From positions 1 to 55,368 of the forward strand of contig JALTXX010000008.1 of assembly GCA_027046625.1 (NCBI GenBank): a stretch of DNA of 55,368 nucleotides, written 5' to 3'. Position 1 is the first letter of the stretch. Every line of letters starts with the position of its first letter. A model generated the notes under the pieces. It was given only the letters and a program-made list of their open reading frames with translations, was not told where the DNA came from and made no database searches. The translations under genes and the position numbers were made by a program. The stretch is from Candidatus Micrarchaeota archaeon (GTDB taxonomy: Archaea; Iainarchaeota; Iainarchaeia; JAADDC01). Of this stretch, positions 1-6,207 are shown one piece after another.

Positions 1-36
1 GAGCTAATAACAGAGGAAGAACTTCGCGGTGAATAG
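1..36 (+). CDS. C-terminal end of probable antitoxin (partial, window edge)
   Basis: Reads ELITEEELRGE*, resembling the tail DFVSEEEFWRE of the antitoxin at 4294-4521; lies directly before a RelE-like fragment. Confidence 0.45.
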   Translation, partial: ELITEEELRGE

Positions 37-38
37 CG

Positions 39-134
39 ATGCTTGTTCTATTCAAGTCAAGGGTTAAGAAACAGCTCAGGAAGCTTCCAAAACATATAGA
101 AAGGAAGTTCTGGAGCTTGTCAAAAAGATTTTAG
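39..134 (+). pseudogene. Truncated RelE/ParE-family toxin
   Basis: Hand translation MLVLFKSRVKKQLRKLPKHIERKFWSLSKRF* has the RelE N-terminal pattern (K.L.KL) but stops after 31 aa. Confidence 0.55.
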
Positions 135-198
135 GGATTTGAACCTTCACCAACTCTGTGTTCACAAATTTGAAGCTCTGTATATTGGTGTTCGTGGG

Positions 199-1083
199 CT
201 AGGGGTTCACCTCCAAGAGCCTCATAATGTACTTCTTCGTCCCTGACTTAAGACGTTCAATTATTTGCCTATCCTCCTTCGGGAAGCTCGCCGATTCGGA
301 GTGTGTAGGTACAACAAATACTTTATCTATTTTTAATTCAAAAAATGCTTCCCATTGAGATAATACATACTCTATTTTGTCCTCCAAGCTCTTCAAATTC
401 TCTGCCCTACCTTGTTCTCTTCCCAAACTCTTAAATATCTTTTCTAGGCTGAAATTCTCGGAAACCCATACCCTTTCAATCTTTTCGGCCTCTCTAACGT
501 GACCAAATACATTGAGCTTAGGTTGCTTCTTTACTTTTACTTTAAAATAAATCCACTTAGGCTTCCTTAATGTTCCAAGGTTGTATGTGCGGTAAAGAAA
601 ATTATCCCAAAGGAATAGATCAAATCCTAAACCCCTGTATATGGGAACCCTTAGCTCATTAAGGTTCTCGATCAGGAACAAAACTTTCCTGTAGTCGTTG
701 ACTTCTATCTCTTCCCAAGCATTAGGCAGCTCATGATTCAGTTCTTTCACTTCAACGGTTTCCCTAAGAGAAAAGTCTTTCCTTATATCACACAGCCTCT
801 CTACCACTTCTTTAAAAATACTCTTTTTGCGATCTTCTGGAATCTTTCTTGGCATCAAAAAGAGGAGGAAGAATCCGAGAGGAATATTTAAACGGTAGAC
901 GTTTTCGTACAGGTACGTGGCTATGTGTAATAGTGTGTCCTGCGGTAATGAGTCGATTAAAATAGTTGCAGAAACAGGAAACTGCGAGACATCAAACTCT
1001 GCATTGAGAAACAAATCTACCATATCCTCTGCAATTACTTGGGCCACATACTCAGGAGAACACCTCAACGGTTCCGTCTTCAT
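199..1083 (-). CDS. Hypothetical 294-aa protein, last gene of the rSAM/precursor operon
   Basis: Long ORF overlapping the PEP-utiliser gene by 32 nt; no motif recognised. Confidence 0.8.
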   Translation of the reverse strand: MKTEPLRCSPEYVAQVIAEDMVDLFLNAEFDVSQFPVSATILIDSLPQDTLLHIATYLYENVYRLNIPLGFFLLFLMPRKIPEDRKKSIFKEVVERLCDIRKDFSLRETVEVKELNHELPNAWEEIEVNDYRKVLFLIENLNELRVPIYRGLGFDLFLWDNFLYRTYNLGTLRKPKWIYFKVKVKKQPKLNVFGHVREAEKIERVWVSENFSLEKIFKSLGREQGRAENLKSLEDKIEYVLSQWEAFFELKIDKVFVVPTHSESASFPKEDRQIIERLKSGTKKYIMRLLEVNP

Positions 1084-1357
1084 GTATCTTCACCCTTGAA
1101 TTTATGGGTATCAACCTTGTAGCATTAGGCAGACGAACACATGGCATTCCTAACTCCCTCGCATAGATAGCTATATGGGAGAGCTTTCCTCCCTCTTCTA
1201 CAATGATTCCTTTGGCATTTACAACCTTTAGCGAATCGAGCGGGGTTATCCTTCTTGCCACTATAATCTCTCCTAGTTTTTCGAGAGTAGAGGCCACGCC
1301 TTCTGCAGATCCAGGGGAGAGGACCTCTCCTTTATAGGTAGCTAACTTCTTCCTCAC
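1052..1357 (-). CDS. Stand-alone PEP-utilising enzyme mobile (phosphohistidine swivelling) domain
   Basis: SPGSAEG and GIIVEEGGKLSHIAIYARELGMPCV match the GGxxSHxAIxARExGxP signature (His61). Confidence 0.9.
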   Translation of the reverse strand: MRKKLATYKGEVLSPGSAEGVASTLEKLGEIIVARRITPLDSLKVVNAKGIIVEEGGKLSHIAIYARELGMPCVRLPNATRLIPINSRVKIHEDGTVEVFS

Positions 1358-2522
1358 TCTCTAACCACCTTTCGAGCAGTTCTTTTGCTTCTTTTTTGTA
1401 TGGGATTACATAGGGTATAACCATCTCTATCAGTTGTTTTTCGTAATCGCATGATGGCGGTACAGCATCCAGATTTCCGTTTATATATGCCAGAAATGGA
1501 CAGCCCCCTCCTCCACCACACAAACCTTTTCTATGGAGTGGACAAGAGTTACATCGCGTGTTTCTTAGAGTTTCGGCACGTTCTACCAGTTTAACGAAAT
1601 TTGAGTGCGTAAAAATCTCTTCTAGGTCATTAACATTATGTATGTTTCCAAACATAAAATCAGGGACGTGAAGACTTGCGGTTCTATTACATAAGGAGAC
1701 TGTTCCGTCCCAATCTATGGCTAGAAAGTGCCTTGTTTTTGCACAACCGATACTCATATGACAATAGGACACAGGTTTCTCAAGCACTATAGCTTGAACC
1801 GCTTTCATAAATATCGGTATATCTATCGGATCCCCATCTTTTATCCAGATATCTAATAAATTTCTCATAAATTTCAAATATTCTTGTGGTGTAATATAAA
1901 GATTGGAGAATATCTTTGCTCTGCCCCACATTATCAGCGGGCTTGGTTGTAATCCAAGACCATTTTCTTTGAAGAAGTTATAAAGTTCCTGCTCTTTGCC
2001 TAAATGGTATTTTGTAACCACCATAATAGCTCCTATATGCCTCTGGTGCTTCCTGAGCAATCTTACTGCTCGTATCACATCATCATAGCTACCTTTGTTA
2101 TTGGGATACACCCTTAGCTTGTCATGTATTTCTTTTGGTCCGTCTAGGCTTATCCCTACATAGACGTTATGTTTTCCGAAAAGACTCGCAAAATTATCGT
2201 CAAGGAGAGTTCCGTTTGTCTGTAACTTAATGCGAATTTTTACACTATCTTTTAATCCATCACCTAGTTTGCTTATGTATTCTAATGCTTTCGTATAATT
2301 TTCTATTCCCCATAAGAGTGGTTCCCCTCCATGGAATAGTATTTCTAAATTAAAGGGAGCGCTTCTTTTTGCATAGTTTAATGCTAACCTGATAGATTGC
2401 TGAAAAGTTTCAAGCTTCATAAGTCCAACATAGGGAGAATCGCCGCCAGGTACATAGCAATATTTACAACGCATGTTGCAACCATCGCCACTAGGTCTTA
2501 CCATAAGCGATAGTTGTTGCAT
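1332..2522 (-). CDS. Radical SAM/SPASM peptide maturase (anSME/FxsB-like)
   Basis: CNMRCKYC, FHGGEPLL, QTNGTLL, ISLDGP; SPASM cysteines CHMSIGC, GTVSLC, CNSC, CGGGGGC, PSC; SD GGGGTG upstream. Confidence 0.93.
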   Translation of the reverse strand: MQQLSLMVRPSGDGCNMRCKYCYVPGGDSPYVGLMKLETFQQSIRLALNYAKRSAPFNLEILFHGGEPLLWGIENYTKALEYISKLGDGLKDSVKIRIKLQTNGTLLDDNFASLFGKHNVYVGISLDGPKEIHDKLRVYPNNKGSYDDVIRAVRLLRKHQRHIGAIMVVTKYHLGKEQELYNFFKENGLGLQPSPLIMWGRAKIFSNLYITPQEYLKFMRNLLDIWIKDGDPIDIPIFMKAVQAIVLEKPVSYCHMSIGCAKTRHFLAIDWDGTVSLCNRTASLHVPDFMFGNIHNVNDLEEIFTHSNFVKLVERAETLRNTRCNSCPLHRKGLCGGGGGCPFLAYINGNLDAVPPSCDYEKQLIEMVIPYVIPYKKEAKELLERWLESEEEVSYL

Positions 2523-2586
2523 CTGTTCTACACCCCGTTATTCGTGTTTTGGACATAAAAATAAAGTAAGTAGCAAACGTTGAAGC

Positions 2587-2715
2587 TCAATACCTGTCCA
2601 CATAGTCTTCGGTGGCCCAGCTGTCGTCGTACATAGTTTTCGGAGCAACTATTTTCTCTCTGTCATACGTAACCATAGCTTTTATACTCTTACGAATGTA
2701 CGCGGGTACCTTCAT
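2587..2715 (-). CDS. Putative RiPP precursor, 42 aa MKVPAYIRKSIKAMVTYDREKIVAPKTMYDDSWATEDYVDRY
   Basis: Below the ORF-track cutoff; SD GAGGGTGA, TATA-like GTATAAAT at 2758-2751, immediately upstream of the rSAM/SPASM gene; basic leader and acidic aromatic core. Confidence 0.8.
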   Translation of the reverse strand: MKVPAYIRKSIKAMVTYDREKIVAPKTMYDDSWATEDYVDRY

Positions 2716-2750
2716 ACCATCACCCTCATCAATATAGGTGATCTTGCCCT

Positions 2751-2758
2751 ATTTATAC
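2751..2758 (-). promoter_or_regulatory. TATA box of precursor operon
   Basis: GTATAAAT on the minus strand about 25-30 nt upstream of the precursor SD. Confidence 0.55.
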
Positions 2759-2852
2759 ATTAGCGCTAGCTAAGGCCCCCGTCAATAAGAAAGGTGTGAA
2801 CGCTGTACCCGAACGGATTCATAGAGGAAAGTCTCCCCAAATGGCCTTGTAG

Positions 2853-3803
2853 CTAAAAGTACCTCTTCAGCATGCCATCAACGCTAAATATATAGTTACC
2901 CTCTCGGTCATAGGAGAGTGCATAGGGTACGAGGCTTACCTCGTCCATAAGTGAAAGAAGGTAAGCAGGCGTGTACCTTCGAATCCTGCCCACCACTATT
3001 CTGGCATTCTTCTTGAAGGGGATTTTATACTTCCAGAAATCAACCTCAACTTCCCTCTTCATCTCGATGTATATCACGATCTCCATCCTGTTCTGGTCGG
3101 CATGGTACCTCAGTATGAAGTCGTCCTCCGAAAGGCCAAAGAACGTCCTCACGCCTGCCGTGAACAGCCTTACAAGCTCTGGTACTTCAACGAACTTTGG
3201 GGCATGAGAATAAAACGTTAGAGGATCAAAGAGCGTCACGGTTACGAAGAAGTGGTCTCTGATGCCCATGGCCTCTCTTATGTTGGTGAGTATTCTCACT
3301 TCGTTAGAATGGTTACCGAGAGTTGCCCCTAGAAGGCCAATGAGCTTTGGCCTATCCGATGTCTCCAATAAGAGCCTCTGCAGGCTGAAAGAGTCGAAGT
3401 CCAGCTGGACGGGTTTTACATCCCTTGCAACAGCCCTCAGTTTTTTTGCAGCCCTCTCAAGTAGCTCTGCCGATATGTCCACGGGAACATAGTCAACGGC
3501 GATGCCCTTCTCGTTCAGGAATTCCACGAGCCTGAGGGCCGGCGTTCCCTCTCCAGACCCCAGATCTATAAAATAGAGTTCCTCTATTTTCTCGTCAGTG
3601 AGAATGTGATTGATCATCCTCTTGAGAAGCCTTGTCTCCCTAAGGCTGTACTGATCCTTTGAGTACTTGTTAAAAACACCTTCCCAGGCGGTGGCCCCCT
3701 CCTCACCCATGTAGCTGAACTTAAGGGGCAGCTCTGCCCTGCCGACGATGCTATCATAGATTTCCCTCCTCTGTTCCGGCGTGAGGAGATCCTCATTAGG
3801 CAT
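2853..3803 (-). CDS. EgtD-like (L-histidine N-alpha-methyltransferase family) SAM-dependent methyltransferase
   Basis: ELPLKFSY..EG...W, Y...E..LL, DLGSGEG, YVPVDIS, LGATLGN motifs. Confidence 0.85.
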   Translation of the reverse strand: MPNEDLLTPEQRREIYDSIVGRAELPLKFSYMGEEGATAWEGVFNKYSKDQYSLRETRLLKRMINHILTDEKIEELYFIDLGSGEGTPALRLVEFLNEKGIAVDYVPVDISAELLERAAKKLRAVARDVKPVQLDFDSFSLQRLLLETSDRPKLIGLLGATLGNHSNEVRILTNIREAMGIRDHFFVTVTLFDPLTFYSHAPKFVEVPELVRLFTAGVRTFFGLSEDDFILRYHADQNRMEIVIYIEMKREVEVDFWKYKIPFKKNARIVVGRIRRYTPAYLLSLMDEVSLVPYALSYDREGNYIFSVDGMLKRYF

Positions 3804-3924
3804 AATAGAAAATACCCGTTTCTGTTTTTAAGGTTTGCTGCGCTTAAGGACTCCCATTTTCGGCGTCACTGGGAAGTATGCCTACGGAACGGGTTTCGCC
3901 TTCTTTTTAACTCTTTTACTACTT

Positions 3925-3951
3925 CGGGTTTATTATAACCCGCGACCTCCG
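3925..3951. repeat. Short inverted repeat CGGGTT-N6-AACCCG overlapping a 15-nt copy of tRNA-Met 3' half sequence
   Basis: AACCCGCGACCTCCG at 3937-3951 is identical to 6228-6242. Confidence 0.4.
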
Positions 3952-4043
3952 TGTGTTTTGAGTTTGGGACACGGGATAACCTCCAATTTGTTCAGGAAAC
4001 CTTACAGGATAGTTCCATTACAGTGATATAATATTGCAAACAT

Positions 4044-4307
4044 TTAAAGCTTCCAGAGACGCTTGTATACTCTCTTTCGGTGCTCGATTAAGAGGACAAC
4101 TATTCTTTTATCTCGAGAACGAATGTCTATGATAATTCTGTAATCGCCAACTCTAATTTTCCTATACGGAAGGTTTACAAGGGGTTCCGAATACTTCCAG
4201 GGGTCTTTCCTTATTAGCTCCAGCTTTTCACGCACGCGTGTAAGAATGTTCTTAGGCAGCTTTTTGGCATCCTTTAATACTTTTCTGCTAAACTCAATCT
4301 TCCACAC
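4044..4307 (-). CDS. relE: RelE/ParE-family toxin
   Basis: WKIEFS..LKDAKKL, YRKIRVGDYRII, HRKRVY; probable GTG start at 4307 overlapping the antitoxin stop. Confidence 0.9.
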   Translation of the reverse strand: MWKIEFSRKVLKDAKKLPKNILTRVREKLELIRKDPWKYSEPLVNLPYRKIRVGDYRIIIDIRSRDKRIVVLLIEHRKRVYKRLWKL

Positions 4308-4521
4308 CAACTTCCCTCCAGAATTCTTCCTCGGAAACAAAATCAGCTTCTGCAGCACGCTTCTTTAGCTCCTTTACCACATCGGGATCGATTATTCCTT
4401 CATCATCGTATGCAATTCCCAGCGCCTCCTCTATGATGCGCAGTCTTGTGCTGATTTCCCTAAGTGTACGAATGACTTCCTCTGTAGTTGCAGTTGTTGA
4501 CATGTTATAACAATTGTTCAT
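4294..4521 (-). CDS. Cognate antitoxin (RelB-like)
   Basis: Small acidic protein upstream of and overlapping relE; FVSEEEFW tail. Confidence 0.75.
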   Translation of the reverse strand: MNNCYNMSTTATTEEVIRTLREISTRLRIIEEALGIAYDDEGIIDPDVVKELKKRAAEADFVSEEEFWREVGVED

Positions 4522-4534
4522 TGTTATTTAAACT

Positions 4535-5154
4535 GTGAACCTTATCAATGTCCTCAACTCAGAGCTCCGCGATGAAGCCCTACGAAGATGGAAGATAGCA
4601 AAAGAGGTAGCAAAACGAGTAAATGGAGTAATCTATGGAAGTATGGCAGCGATGATGGTTGATGGACTTCCGAGACTGCCTAGGGATGCAGATATTGCAG
4701 TGGACTGGAGCCTGGATAAGTTTCTGGAGTGGTTAGAAAGTTTGAACAAGAAAGTTGGTTTGAGGTAGAACTTGTTCGTCAACCACCAGGTGTTTGGAAG
4801 AACGACGGACCACAGTATACACTTCTGCTTTGGGAGAAAGATTACAGGTTTTTCGTTAACCTTGCATCGGAGCATGTAGAATCAAATAAAGTAGTTGATG
4901 GAGCAAAACTGAGGCTCGAAAGGAATGAATACATAGAGCAGAAGAAACGGAAAATACTGGAAGGAAATCCTACGATCCTCGATCTCTTAGACCTGCTGTG
5001 GTTTGAAGGAGAAGATGCGTGGAGGTTCGCAGATTTGTTATCAGAAGATATAAAGAGAAAAATTGTAAGAAGCATAGAGAAGTATGTGAAACTTGTGCCA
5101 GGGGAGAATCAAACAATAATCGATGAGATACAAAGACGCTTACGCTTACTTTAG
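4535..5154 (+). pseudogene. Frameshifted nucleotidyltransferase (AbiEii-like/Pol-beta fold)
   Basis: ORF 4535-4768 has IYGSMAA...PRLPRDADIAVD; ORF 4729-5154 continues in another frame with a 40-nt overlap. Confidence 0.55.
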
Positions 5155-5216
5155 GGGGAGCGATCAATTACCAAATGCAACGTTAGTCCTGATACAGGCT
5201 GTGTATTTGTATTCGT

Positions 5217-5489
5217 TTATATTCGTCTTCTCTTTGCTGCATCTACAGCCTTATCAACTACGATACGGAAATAGTAAATAAGAACACCAAAACCGCCCAC
5301 TCCTGTGAAAATTGCTTGAAAACTTATTCCTGGAGACTAATGCAGTAATGTGTCAAGCACCATACCAAAGACCATAAAGAAGGGGATTACAACGGCTATC
5401 AACATAAAGCGCATTATTGGTTGTTGCCACTCTTCAAATATTTTCTCCTCGACGGCTTGTGCTCTACGATTAGTTCTCTTGGGCTTCAT
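5217..5489 (-). pseudogene. Two-TM membrane protein with internal amber stop
   Basis: SD GGAGGTG, ATG at 5489, TAG at 5339-5337; the frame continues with a second hydrophobic helix to TAA at 5217. Confidence 0.5.
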
Positions 5490-6207
5490 CTTTGTACACC
5501 TCCGAAAGCGATCTAATTAATGCTGGTGCAAGAACACCCACAAAGACATAATACCACATGCTAAAAACAAGTAAACCGACCATAGTGGTATTCGATAACT
5601 CTGCATCTTTGATGCCTGCAGCAAAAACAAGCGCGTATACTATGAGAACTAAAATACCAACAAATACTGCTGACTCGGCATACACTATTTTAGGTGGGAA
5701 ACCGCCCTGTATTAGTCTCTCTTCTCTGTCTTTTAATCCGCCTGCTCCTAAAAAGGCGGAGAAAAGAGTTAATATGGTCGCAATCGTACCCGTCTCACCT
5801 TTTAGTCTGCTTACGACCAGCGAAAAATCTCCCAACAAATCTGATAGAGTTGGGATATAAAAGATTAAAAAGGAAAGTAAGGTAATGTCTATAGCACCTA
5901 TTAGTGCAAAGACGATCAACCGCAAGTATTGTTCAATACCCGAATATAATTCAAACCAGCCGAGTTTTCCAGAAAGTAGGTATAGAATAATCCCCATGCT
6001 AAAAATCGTGATAATTGCGACGCTTACAAGAAGGAGTATACCTAGCAAGTTACCGAAGATACTAGAAAGAGGTGCAATAAAAATACGTGGATAAAACCAA
6101 ACTGCCAGTGCTAAGAATAAGATTATACCAACGATGAAACCAGCAAGCCCACTAATGGCTACCTTTTTCCAGCCCTGACGGTCTCTGGTATTGGCTCTCG
6201 AAGACAT
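5470..6207 (-). CDS. Multi-pass membrane protein
   Basis: About 6 hydrophobic segments; start moved to ATG 6207 because the ORF-track start lies within tRNA-Met. Confidence 0.75.
   Translation of the reverse strand: MSSRANTRDRQGWKKVAISGLAGFIVGIILFLALAVWFYPRIFIAPLSSIFGNLLGILLLVSVAIITIFSMGIILYLLSGKLGWFELYSGIEQYLRLIVFALIGAIDITLLSFLIFYIPTLSDLLGDFSLVVSRLKGETGTIATILTLFSAFLGAGGLKDREERLIQGGFPPKIVYAESAVFVGILVLIVYALVFAAGIKDAELSNTTMVGLLVFSMWYYVFVGVLAPALIRSLSEVYKDEAQEN

Follow-up and report, generated by a model that had tools for sequence, protein, structure and literature searches.

The first 2.7 kb of contig JALTXX010000008.1 (assembly GCA_027046625.1) of a Candidatus Micrarchaeota archaeon hold four co-directional minus-strand genes, which encode a precursor peptide, a radical S-adenosylmethionine (SAM) enzyme with a SPASM domain, a free-standing phosphohistidine 'swivel' protein of 101 residues and a protein of 294 residues. 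Positions 1 to 55,368 of this contig form the stretch analysed here (the window); the four genes are called the cassette, and X is our working name for the 294-residue protein and its homologues. We propose that the swivel protein and X make up the substrate-side half of a phosphotransferase of the phosphoenolpyruvate (PEP)-synthase/RPH/HpeHI type, split further than any described form, which tailors a Tyr/Asp-rich cyclophane-type peptide. As part of the same proposal, a mobile peptide cassette of the radical-SAM/SPASM type would have taken up this module to serve in tailoring. We give this reading a probability of roughly 45%, because of the identity of the swivel protein and its invariant histidine, the obligate pairing with X, the coupling of the genes, the ATP-grasp neighbours in related loci, the link to radical-SAM genes, the family of precursors and the precedent of HpeHI.

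The sole Pfam match of the 101-residue protein is PF00391 (PEP-utilisers mobile domain), which scores 55.3 bits (E = 5.1e-15; cut-off 23.1). Domains of this kind shuttle phosphoryl groups in PPDK, PEP synthase, enzyme I and rifampin phosphotransferase. The best NCBIfam alignments run nearly the full length of the protein and fall on the C-terminal swivels of PEP-synthase-like and rifamycin phosphotransferase models, with DhaM and PtsI models also among the matches; the scores are at most 43 bits, where the equivalog cut-offs are at least 341 bits. An earlier reading made from the DNA letters (the sequence-only reading) had called the protein a PEP-utiliser mobile domain and nothing else, with its catalytic histidine intact, and both statements hold: His61 sits in a GGKLSH motif (GGKLSH-IAIYARE context). 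Among 23 partner swivel proteins, G20, G56, H61, I64 and E68 are invariant down to ∼28% identity, and the GG..SH..RE motif is invariant or nearly so. Because the histidine is retained in 23 of 23 partners, the residue predicted to carry the phosphoryl group is, judging from the alignment, under selection. Near-length homologues of the swivel protein are few, with only 11 found.

The swivel protein is strictly paired with X. Loci with X were drawn from genome contigs, 215 genomes of the same phylum and metagenome contigs (by a scan with a 10-sequence alignment), and their open reading frames (ORFs) were scanned with hidden Markov models (HMMs) of X, the swivel protein and the window radical-SAM enzyme. 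X matches occur in 12 of the 215 genomes (a count that includes G000), and a weak X-like match in G203 (19 bits over 36 residues of a 433-residue frame) was left out of the locus count. In each of the 16 distinct loci, a swivel ORF of 92–110 residues lies directly beside X. The swivel gene precedes X in eight of them (the window, L001, L002, L003, L029, L030, L031 and L034) and follows it in the other eight (L014 and L022–L028). Adjacency persists down to ∼17–25% identity of X. Since it is kept in both gene orders and at this depth of divergence, it suggests that X and swivel work together and probably also touch physically. Some copies are decayed: the radical-SAM gene of L003 is broken into three ORFs and X of L028 into two (154 and 133 residues), and the X of L027, only 175 residues long, likewise shows a sign of decay. 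L034 carries a second, diverged pair (swivel of 102 residues; X of 284 residues, 37% identical to that of the window), which lies directly downstream of an M16 peptidase-like gene and is convergent to an L001-type cassette. The last 50 nt of L034 match the 3′ end of the window X gene at 98%, and the abutting convergent X was taken to be that of L001; on that reading, one organism holds two X–swivel pairs tail to tail.

Within the window cassette the pair is joined to the radical-SAM gene by its reading frames. The swivel gene overlaps both of its neighbours, just as the sequence-only reading had it, by 26 nt on the radical-SAM side and by 32 nt on the X side (from ORF coordinates). Its GTG start codon lies within the overlap at the radical-SAM stop, and its own stop overlaps the start of X. 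The corresponding junctions are without spacer in L014 and overlapping in L003. The contig begins 198 nt downstream of X, and the window shows nothing further in that direction. More broadly, a radical-SAM gene is found within 5 kb of the pair in 8 of the 16 loci (the window, L001, L003, L014, L022, L024, L030 and L031). The pair is therefore not one that usually occurs without such a gene, and the link is not absolute. Two further neighbours fit a peptide pathway: the M16 peptidase-like gene that precedes the L034 pair, and a weak PqqD-like ORF beside the radical-SAM/SPASM gene of L030.

The radical-SAM enzyme of the window matches the Pfam families Radical_SAM (74.8 bits) and SPASM (33 bits). 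It has no N-terminal recognition element (RRE) for peptides that are made on ribosomes and modified after translation (RiPPs), and its CxxxCxxC motif begins at residue 15. Its highest NCBIfam scores are 196.9 bits for DynA (cut-off 450), 195.1 for anSME (349), 152.3 for GrrM/OscB (310) and 148.1 for YhhB (445); all of its NCBIfam scores are below cut-off, and the sulfatase maturase model scores equally with DynA. The host genome (652 kb, with an estimated completeness of 94%) is spread over 18 contigs, of which the window is C8, and is that of a DPANN-size archaeon. It encodes eight radical-SAM enzymes and one SPASM protein, namely that of the cassette. All listed runs that contain this stretch are DNA data, from hydrothermal-vent metagenomes; no RNA dataset is listed.

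The precursor (MKVPAYIRKS...MYDDSWATEDYVDRY) is built of Y-x-D units and ends in Y-x-D-x-Y. A precursor ORF lies directly upstream of the window-type radical-SAM gene in all five loci that have one, and the C-termini read EDYVDRY in the window and in L001, VDYVDRY in L003, DEYVDGY in L022 and DQYFDKY in L014. Read in all six frames, the 652-kb genome has the Y.D.Y-stop signature at a single site, and L001, L003, L014 and L022 have it once each; the ten other loci scanned have none. All five precursors keep Tyr38, Asp40 and Tyr42, the last residue. The sequence-only reading had suggested Ser32, Thr35, a tyrosine or an aspartate of the core as the site of modification; of these, neither Ser32 nor Thr35 is conserved among the five homologous precursors. 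The aromatic units of the window precursor are Y-D-D, W-A-T and Y-V-D. In the accessible text of PMC11499958, triceptides are defined by Ω1-X2-X3 (aromatic-X-X) motifs, a definition that the Y-x-D cores fit. The L003 precursor has five Y-x-D-x units, and in that of L001 a run of ∼10 DY[SNL] repeats is inserted ahead of the conserved terminus, DSWATEDYVDRY. Close relatives thus differ greatly in how many units they have, from three aromatic units in the window to more than ten in L001. The four-gene set of precursor, radical-SAM enzyme, swivel and X is kept from 87% down to ∼34% identity of X.

Relatives of the window suggest where the phosphoryl group could come from. In L025, a 509-residue protein with PPDK_N and swivel domains is encoded directly adjacent to the pair, and in L030 a stand-alone PPDK_N protein of 307 residues (261.8 bits) is one gene away. 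The genome of L030 (G193, 93% complete) has its only PPDK_N and its only swivel in the cluster of the pair. This suggests that a dikinase of the RPH/HpeHI type is here encoded as three separate proteins, X standing where the module for the second substrate would be. The suggestion of a split phosphotransferase, made in the sequence-only reading, gains indirect support from these neighbours, the strict pairing and the invariant histidine. In the host of the window, the sole PPDK_N and the sole other swivel domain both reside in a 756-residue PEP synthase on contig C13, and in the genome G201 it is likewise PEP synthase that carries the only ATP-grasp. For the window, the phosphate could be supplied by PEP synthase acting in trans, by X through a donor site of its own or by the product of a gene past the contig end. 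The genome that contains L026 (G125) has at least eight swivel-domain matches in 13 kb beside a PPDK_N match.

In the mechanism that we propose, the radical-SAM enzyme would modify Y-x-D units of the 42-residue precursor, with a triceptide-like aromatic-to-Cβ cyclophane as the likeliest product. His61 of the swivel would be phosphorylated, the donor in relatives presumably being the dedicated PPDK_N ATP-grasp protein encoded nearby. The phospho-swivel would dock on X, which would bind the peptide and, at a site made up of the conserved Arg150, Tyr167 and His195, transfer the phosphoryl group onto a conserved acceptor residue or carboxylate. By analogy with HpeHI, CreHI and PpsAB, the phenol of Tyr38 or Tyr42 would be the likeliest acceptor; Asp40 or the C-terminal carboxylate may serve instead. 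The precursor tyrosines are attractive candidates because known split dikinases act on phenols. As far as the accessible text of PMC12167813 describes these systems, a separate ATP-grasp protein charges the swivel histidine of a partner that also contains a substrate domain of the RIF-binding-like kind. They phosphorylate phenolic hydroxyls, and HpeH by itself moves phosphate between phenols (PMC12167813, same portion). For a self-protection kinase, the other role that the sequence-only reading had considered, nothing was found in support.

X itself belongs to a rare orphan family. A word-indexed search returned nine homologues of 190–295 residues, and an exhaustive HMMER search of 1.84 billion proteins yielded 21 cluster representatives at E ≤ 1e-3. 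All of these are 110–305 residues long apart from P0032 (952 residues), which was rejected as a long form of X: it is an Ig-repeat protein and its match is spurious. No fused or longer form of X appeared among 1952 candidates, a result that the search tool itself rates as weak evidence. Across 23 aligned sequences, P147, R150 and Y167 never vary, and P36, G151, P188, G194 and H195 are shared by 90% or more; the motifs P-[IV]-[FY]-R-G and F-G-H result. The close subfamily additionally keeps R101, D103, R107, E111, E143, D155, R165 and N168. X has no match in Pfam or NCBIfam at E ≤ 1 and none in PADLOC or PHROGs, and no recurring family emerged when all 23 members were compared with Pfam at E ≤ 5. 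The best match in a search of PDB sequences with the X profile was a proteasome subunit (E = 0.032), which we rejected as a relative. No P-loop or other nucleotide motif was recognized in X. The sequence-only reading had recognized no ATP-grasp motif, and hhalign comparison of the 23 X sequences with three PPDK_N sequences gives a probability of 0.1%; the fold-search lists produced by VIA contain no ATP-grasp row either. X is thus not a recognizable ATP-grasp protein.

The sequence-only reading had named structure prediction and fold searches as checks on this protein. The AlphaFold2 model of X is confident, with a mean predicted local distance difference test score (pLDDT) of 81 and a predicted template modelling score (pTM) of 0.81. 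It comprises an N-terminal helical part (residues ∼10–100), an alpha/beta part with an antiparallel sheet (∼123–250) and C-terminal helices. The whole model has no Foldseek match at E ≤ 1e-3. Wide VIA searches with it reached Z = 5.5, for helix matches of ∼50 residues only, and VIA re-alignment of the top 1000 Foldseek entries gave a best Z of 4.9; by the tool's own notes, Z values below 5 denote common arrangements. Folded alone, the alpha/beta part retains a pLDDT of 81.5 and again has no Foldseek match, with a best Z of 4.8 in the wide VIA search. At least four of 50 VIA rows for this part are triphosphate-tunnel enzymes, all with Z below 5: Cet1 with tripolyphosphate (6l7v_A; Z = 4.8, root-mean-square deviation 4.2 over 70 residues), YgiF (Z = 3.1), Pct1 (Z = 2.8) and TTM1 (Z = 2.8). 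Comparison of X with ten CYTH proteins by hhalign gives probabilities of 0.1–0.3%, and no ExExK motif was seen in the X alignment. The triphosphate-tunnel likeness is a weak lead. The VIA and Foldseek lists contain no RPH row for X, an absence that does not exclude a RIF-binding-like fold.

Several observations weigh against our proposal. Neither the RIF-binding/HpeH substrate domain nor any solved structure shows detectable similarity to X in sequence or fold, and the role of X as acceptor module is drawn from position and context only. The window cassette has no PPDK_N ATP-grasp of its own; G004 (79% complete) contains the pair and no PPDK_N anywhere in the genome. The swivel motif described for HpeH and its relatives in the accessible part of PMC12167813, T/SxxGGxxxH, is only partly present: position 53, where T/S would be expected, is Val in the window and I/V/T in relatives. 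Three loci whose contigs extend 5 kb or more to either side of the pair (L023, L026 and L027) have neither a peptide-type radical-SAM gene nor a Y-x-D-x-Y peptide. The coupling to a RiPP maturase put forward in the sequence-only reading is thus real and not obligatory, and because these loci hold the pair without such an enzyme, a peptide may not be its universal substrate. The X proteins of L029–L031, which include the ATP-grasp case L030, are distant homologues scoring 21–44 bits with the X profile: L030 scores 21 bits and is linked via L031 (E = 1e-19), and L029 (44 bits) matches L031 at E = 2e-77. Finally, the 16 loci belong to genomes that are related, all within a single class, and do not count as independent cases.

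A bolder form of the proposal makes X a new phosphoryl-transfer domain which, with the free swivel, would be the first phosphohistidine-dependent kinase to act on a ribosomal peptide, phosphorylating the invariant Tyr/Asp/Tyr C-terminus of a cyclophane-type RiPP of genome-reduced DPANN archaea or activating it as an acyl- or aryl-phosphate. We consider this rather unlikely as it stands. On that account the phosphate may come from the single PEP synthase of the cell, and maturation of the peptide would then be coupled to cellular energy status. The division of labour could also be the reverse, with X a new domain that binds a nucleotide, polyphosphate or PEP and itself charges His61, so that the pair would be a self-sufficient mini 'enzyme I'. 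Its acceptor, either the peptide (which the radical-SAM enzyme may hold) or some other molecule, would be bound elsewhere. Such a donor role would fit the lack of an ATP-grasp gene near most loci (the window among them) and in the whole of G004. It would also suit the conserved Arg, His and acidic residues of the close subfamily (R101, D103, R107, E111, R150, D155, R165 and H195) and the recurring weak matches of the alpha/beta domain to Cet1, YgiF, Pct1 and TTM1. Yet these matches all have Z below 5, the hhalign probabilities with ten CYTH proteins do not exceed 0.3%, and neither a nucleotide motif nor a family match was found in 23 members. Moreover, in L030/G193 a stand-alone PPDK_N without a swivel of its own already supplies a donor. 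We judge a donor role of X to be unlikely.

Another view keeps the phosphotransfer and drops the peptide. In that case the two proteins would form a small-molecule kinase or phosphotransfer unit carried along in mobile cassettes, and their place beside the radical-SAM gene would come from this shared mobility, from a common pathway to a non-peptide product, or from a part in immunity or regulation. The three loci without a peptide-type radical-SAM gene speak for this view, as do an AMP-binding-like enzyme (L026, L030), a CN-hydrolase, a thiamine diphosphate (ThDP) enzyme, glycosyltransferases and a pyridoxal phosphate (PLP) decarboxylase among the neighbours. So do the low GC content of the cassette (40.2% against 44.1% genome-wide) and the tRNA and partial tRNA copy that bound the L001/L034 cassette. 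The split dikinases described in the accessible text of PMC12167813 all act on small molecules. Against such a role, the genes are translationally coupled to the radical-SAM gene in the window, L001, L003 and L014, the four-gene set is retained from 87% to ∼34% identity of X, and radical-SAM/SPASM genes are strongly enriched beside the pair, compared with one SPASM gene per 652 kb. We judge the small-molecule role, too, to be unlikely. The pair might, lastly, be a chaperone or leader-binding scaffold for a radical-SAM enzyme without an RRE, reusing the swivel fold structurally and transferring no phosphate. The window enzyme does lack an N-terminal RRE, and no separate PqqD-like gene is seen in window-type cassettes. 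Many cyclophane-type radical-SAM maturases, however, function without an RRE, and L030 holds the pair together with a PqqD-like ORF, albeit a weak one that scores under the cut-off. The catalytic histidine and the GG..SH..RE motif kept in 23 partners would be unexpected in a purely structural part, and we regard a scaffold as very unlikely.

Coordinates of the genes and other features are collected in Table 1. Beyond the radical-SAM genes, the neighbours of the pair differ from locus to locus; a CN-hydrolase and a PLP decarboxylase are also among them outside the window. The contigs of L002, L025, L028 and L029 end within ∼1.5 kb of the pair. Taken together, the pair behaves as a module plugged into varied peptide- or natural-product-like clusters. 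In L026, a gene of the low-molecular-weight phosphotyrosine phosphatase family lies divergently adjacent to X and is followed by a P-loop kinase-like gene, an arrangement that hints faintly at phosphotyrosine chemistry near the pair.

Table 1. Features of the window and of related loci, with positions counted within each locus
Feature	Locus	Position	Strand	Size	Basis or remark
X	window	199..1083	minus	294 aa	ORF listing
Swivel protein	window	1052..1357	minus	101 aa	ORF listing; PF00391
Radical-SAM/SPASM enzyme	window	1332..2522	minus	396 aa	ORF listing; Radical_SAM + SPASM matches
Precursor peptide	window	2587..2715	minus	42 aa	ORF listing
GGTGAT Shine-Dalgarno-like element	window	2719-2724			precedes precursor; read from the sequence
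Putative archaeal TATA-like box TATAAATA	window	2750..2757	minus		35-42 nt upstream of precursor ATG; read from the sequence
Methyltransf_33 (EgtD/EasF-like) methyltransferase	window	2853-3803	minus	316 aa	
ParE-toxin-like gene with small upstream ORF	window	4044-4521	minus	104 aa; 75 aa	PF05016 (ParE-like gene)
Fragment at contig start	window	39-134	plus	31 aa	by eye
Two overlapping ORFs	window	4535-5154	plus	77 aa; 141 aa	
Single ORF matching the two above	L034	3345-3971		208 aa	
Second X–swivel pair	L034	4037-6309			
33-nt copy of tRNA 3′ end	L034	6415-6447		33 nt	
Same 33 nt at the tRNA 3′ end	L001	4035-4067		33 nt	
Intron-containing tRNA	L001	3947-4065			Rfam 59.8 bits
Precursor peptide	L001	4144-4491			
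TnpB/Cas12f-like gene	L002	74-1297			OrfB_IS605 + TNB domain
Radical-SAM gene in three ORFs	L003	1069-2282			
X in two ORFs	L028	560-1385			
Short X	L027	5846-6373			
Phosphotyrosine-phosphatase-family gene	L026	6075-6668	minus		
Swivel-domain matches beside PPDK_N	G125, contig C1	∼751-764 kb			
Second radical-SAM enzyme + flavoprotein	L022				
ThDP enzyme + second radical-SAM enzyme	L031				
AMP-binding-like enzyme	L026, L030				44% identical between loci
Glycosyltransferases, methyltransferase, major facilitator superfamily (MFS) transporter	L030				
PqqD-like small ORF beside radical-SAM/SPASM	L030				21.9 bits, under 23.4-bit cut-off

The composition and borders of the cassettes bear on their mobility. 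The GC content of the window cassette falls in the lowest 1% of 2.5-kb windows of its genome. The L001 cassette begins just after an intron-containing tRNA, and an identical 33-nt copy of the 3′ end of this tRNA lies beyond X, on the abutting L034. The tRNA and its partial copy look like the attL and attR sites of a tRNA-integrated element. No integrase is encoded between the two repeats in L001/L034. ARAGORN detected no tRNA in positions 1–6000 of the window or in L034, and no direct repeats were found flanking the window cassette. In L002, a 2.6-kb contig assigned to a bacterial metagenome-assembled genome (MAG) of Persephonella, a TnpB/Cas12f-like gene lies directly upstream of the pair; the contig could be a case of inter-domain transfer or could be mis-binned.

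Directly upstream of the precursor, and likewise on the minus strand, the window encodes a methyltransferase whose gene has a GC content of 49.4%, compared with 40.2% in the cassette. The L001 cassette has no such neighbour, so the methyltransferase probably does not belong to the cassette. Further upstream lies a ParE-toxin-like gene, and the small ORF that precedes it may encode its antitoxin. The fragment at the contig start resembles, by eye, the N-terminus of this ParE-like toxin. The two overlapping ORFs beyond match a single ORF of L034, and no known family was found for either version; the window copy may carry a frameshift.

If the proposal is right, X would found a new catalytic domain family, and phosphohistidine-mediated modification of tyrosine or aspartate would be added to the chemistry of RiPP tailoring. 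It would also mean that a symbiont-size archaeon with a genome of 650 kb keeps and exchanges cassettes resembling those of secondary metabolism. With its four genes, the system is compact and suited to direct testing by heterologous expression.

Several known systems share parts of this design. The carrier logic recalls that of enzyme I and HPr of the phosphotransferase system (PTS) and of DhaM, in which a phosphohistidine swivel carrier passes its phosphate on to another protein. The two are alike in logic alone, and the PTS components, PEP-binding TIM barrel and Dak domains of those systems are missing here. The 101-residue protein aligns with the C-terminal swivel of RPH and PEP-synthase-like proteins (NF041857, PRK06241) and of PigC/RedH, with the histidine motif kept, whereas those proteins are single chains of 830–900 residues that unite ATP-grasp, substrate domain and swivel. 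On the peptide side, the radical-SAM enzyme scores best with the triceptide/3-CyFE, DynA, GrrM/OscB, YhhB and XyeB group and equally well with anSME, and the precursor shares its aromatic-X-X units. It differs from that group in its Y-x-D units, its invariant C-terminal Y-x-D-x-Y and its phosphohistidine module, and the enzyme scores below the family cut-offs. In the portions of the literature that were accessible, no description of a triceptide or other radical-SAM RiPP mentions a Y-x-D unit with a C-terminal Y-x-D-x-Y or a phosphohistidine module in the cluster; nor is a swivel domain described there in a RiPP or radical-SAM cluster or in RiPPs of DPANN archaea.

HpeHI, CreHI and PpsAB, as they are portrayed in the accessible text on them, offer the closest match to the proposed phosphotransfer: a split RPH architecture, a swivel histidine as carrier and a separate ATP-grasp protein, as in L030/G193, together with phenolic substrates that chemically resemble the conserved tyrosines of the precursor. 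In those systems, however, the swivel is fused to a RIF-binding-like domain of ∼470 residues, whereas here it is a free protein of 101 residues that accompanies the unrelated X of 294. Their setting is aromatic catabolism; that of the pair is a ribosomal-peptide/radical-SAM cassette in a 652-kb archaeal genome, with no ATP-grasp in the cassette. Phosphotransferases that use a swivel histidine come as one chain (PEP synthase, PPDK, RPH, PigC) or as two (HpeHI, CreHI, PpsAB), and their substrates are small molecules. What sets the present system apart is that the carrier is a separate 101-residue protein, tied by gene order to an orphan family and found inside ribosomal-peptide/radical-SAM cassettes.

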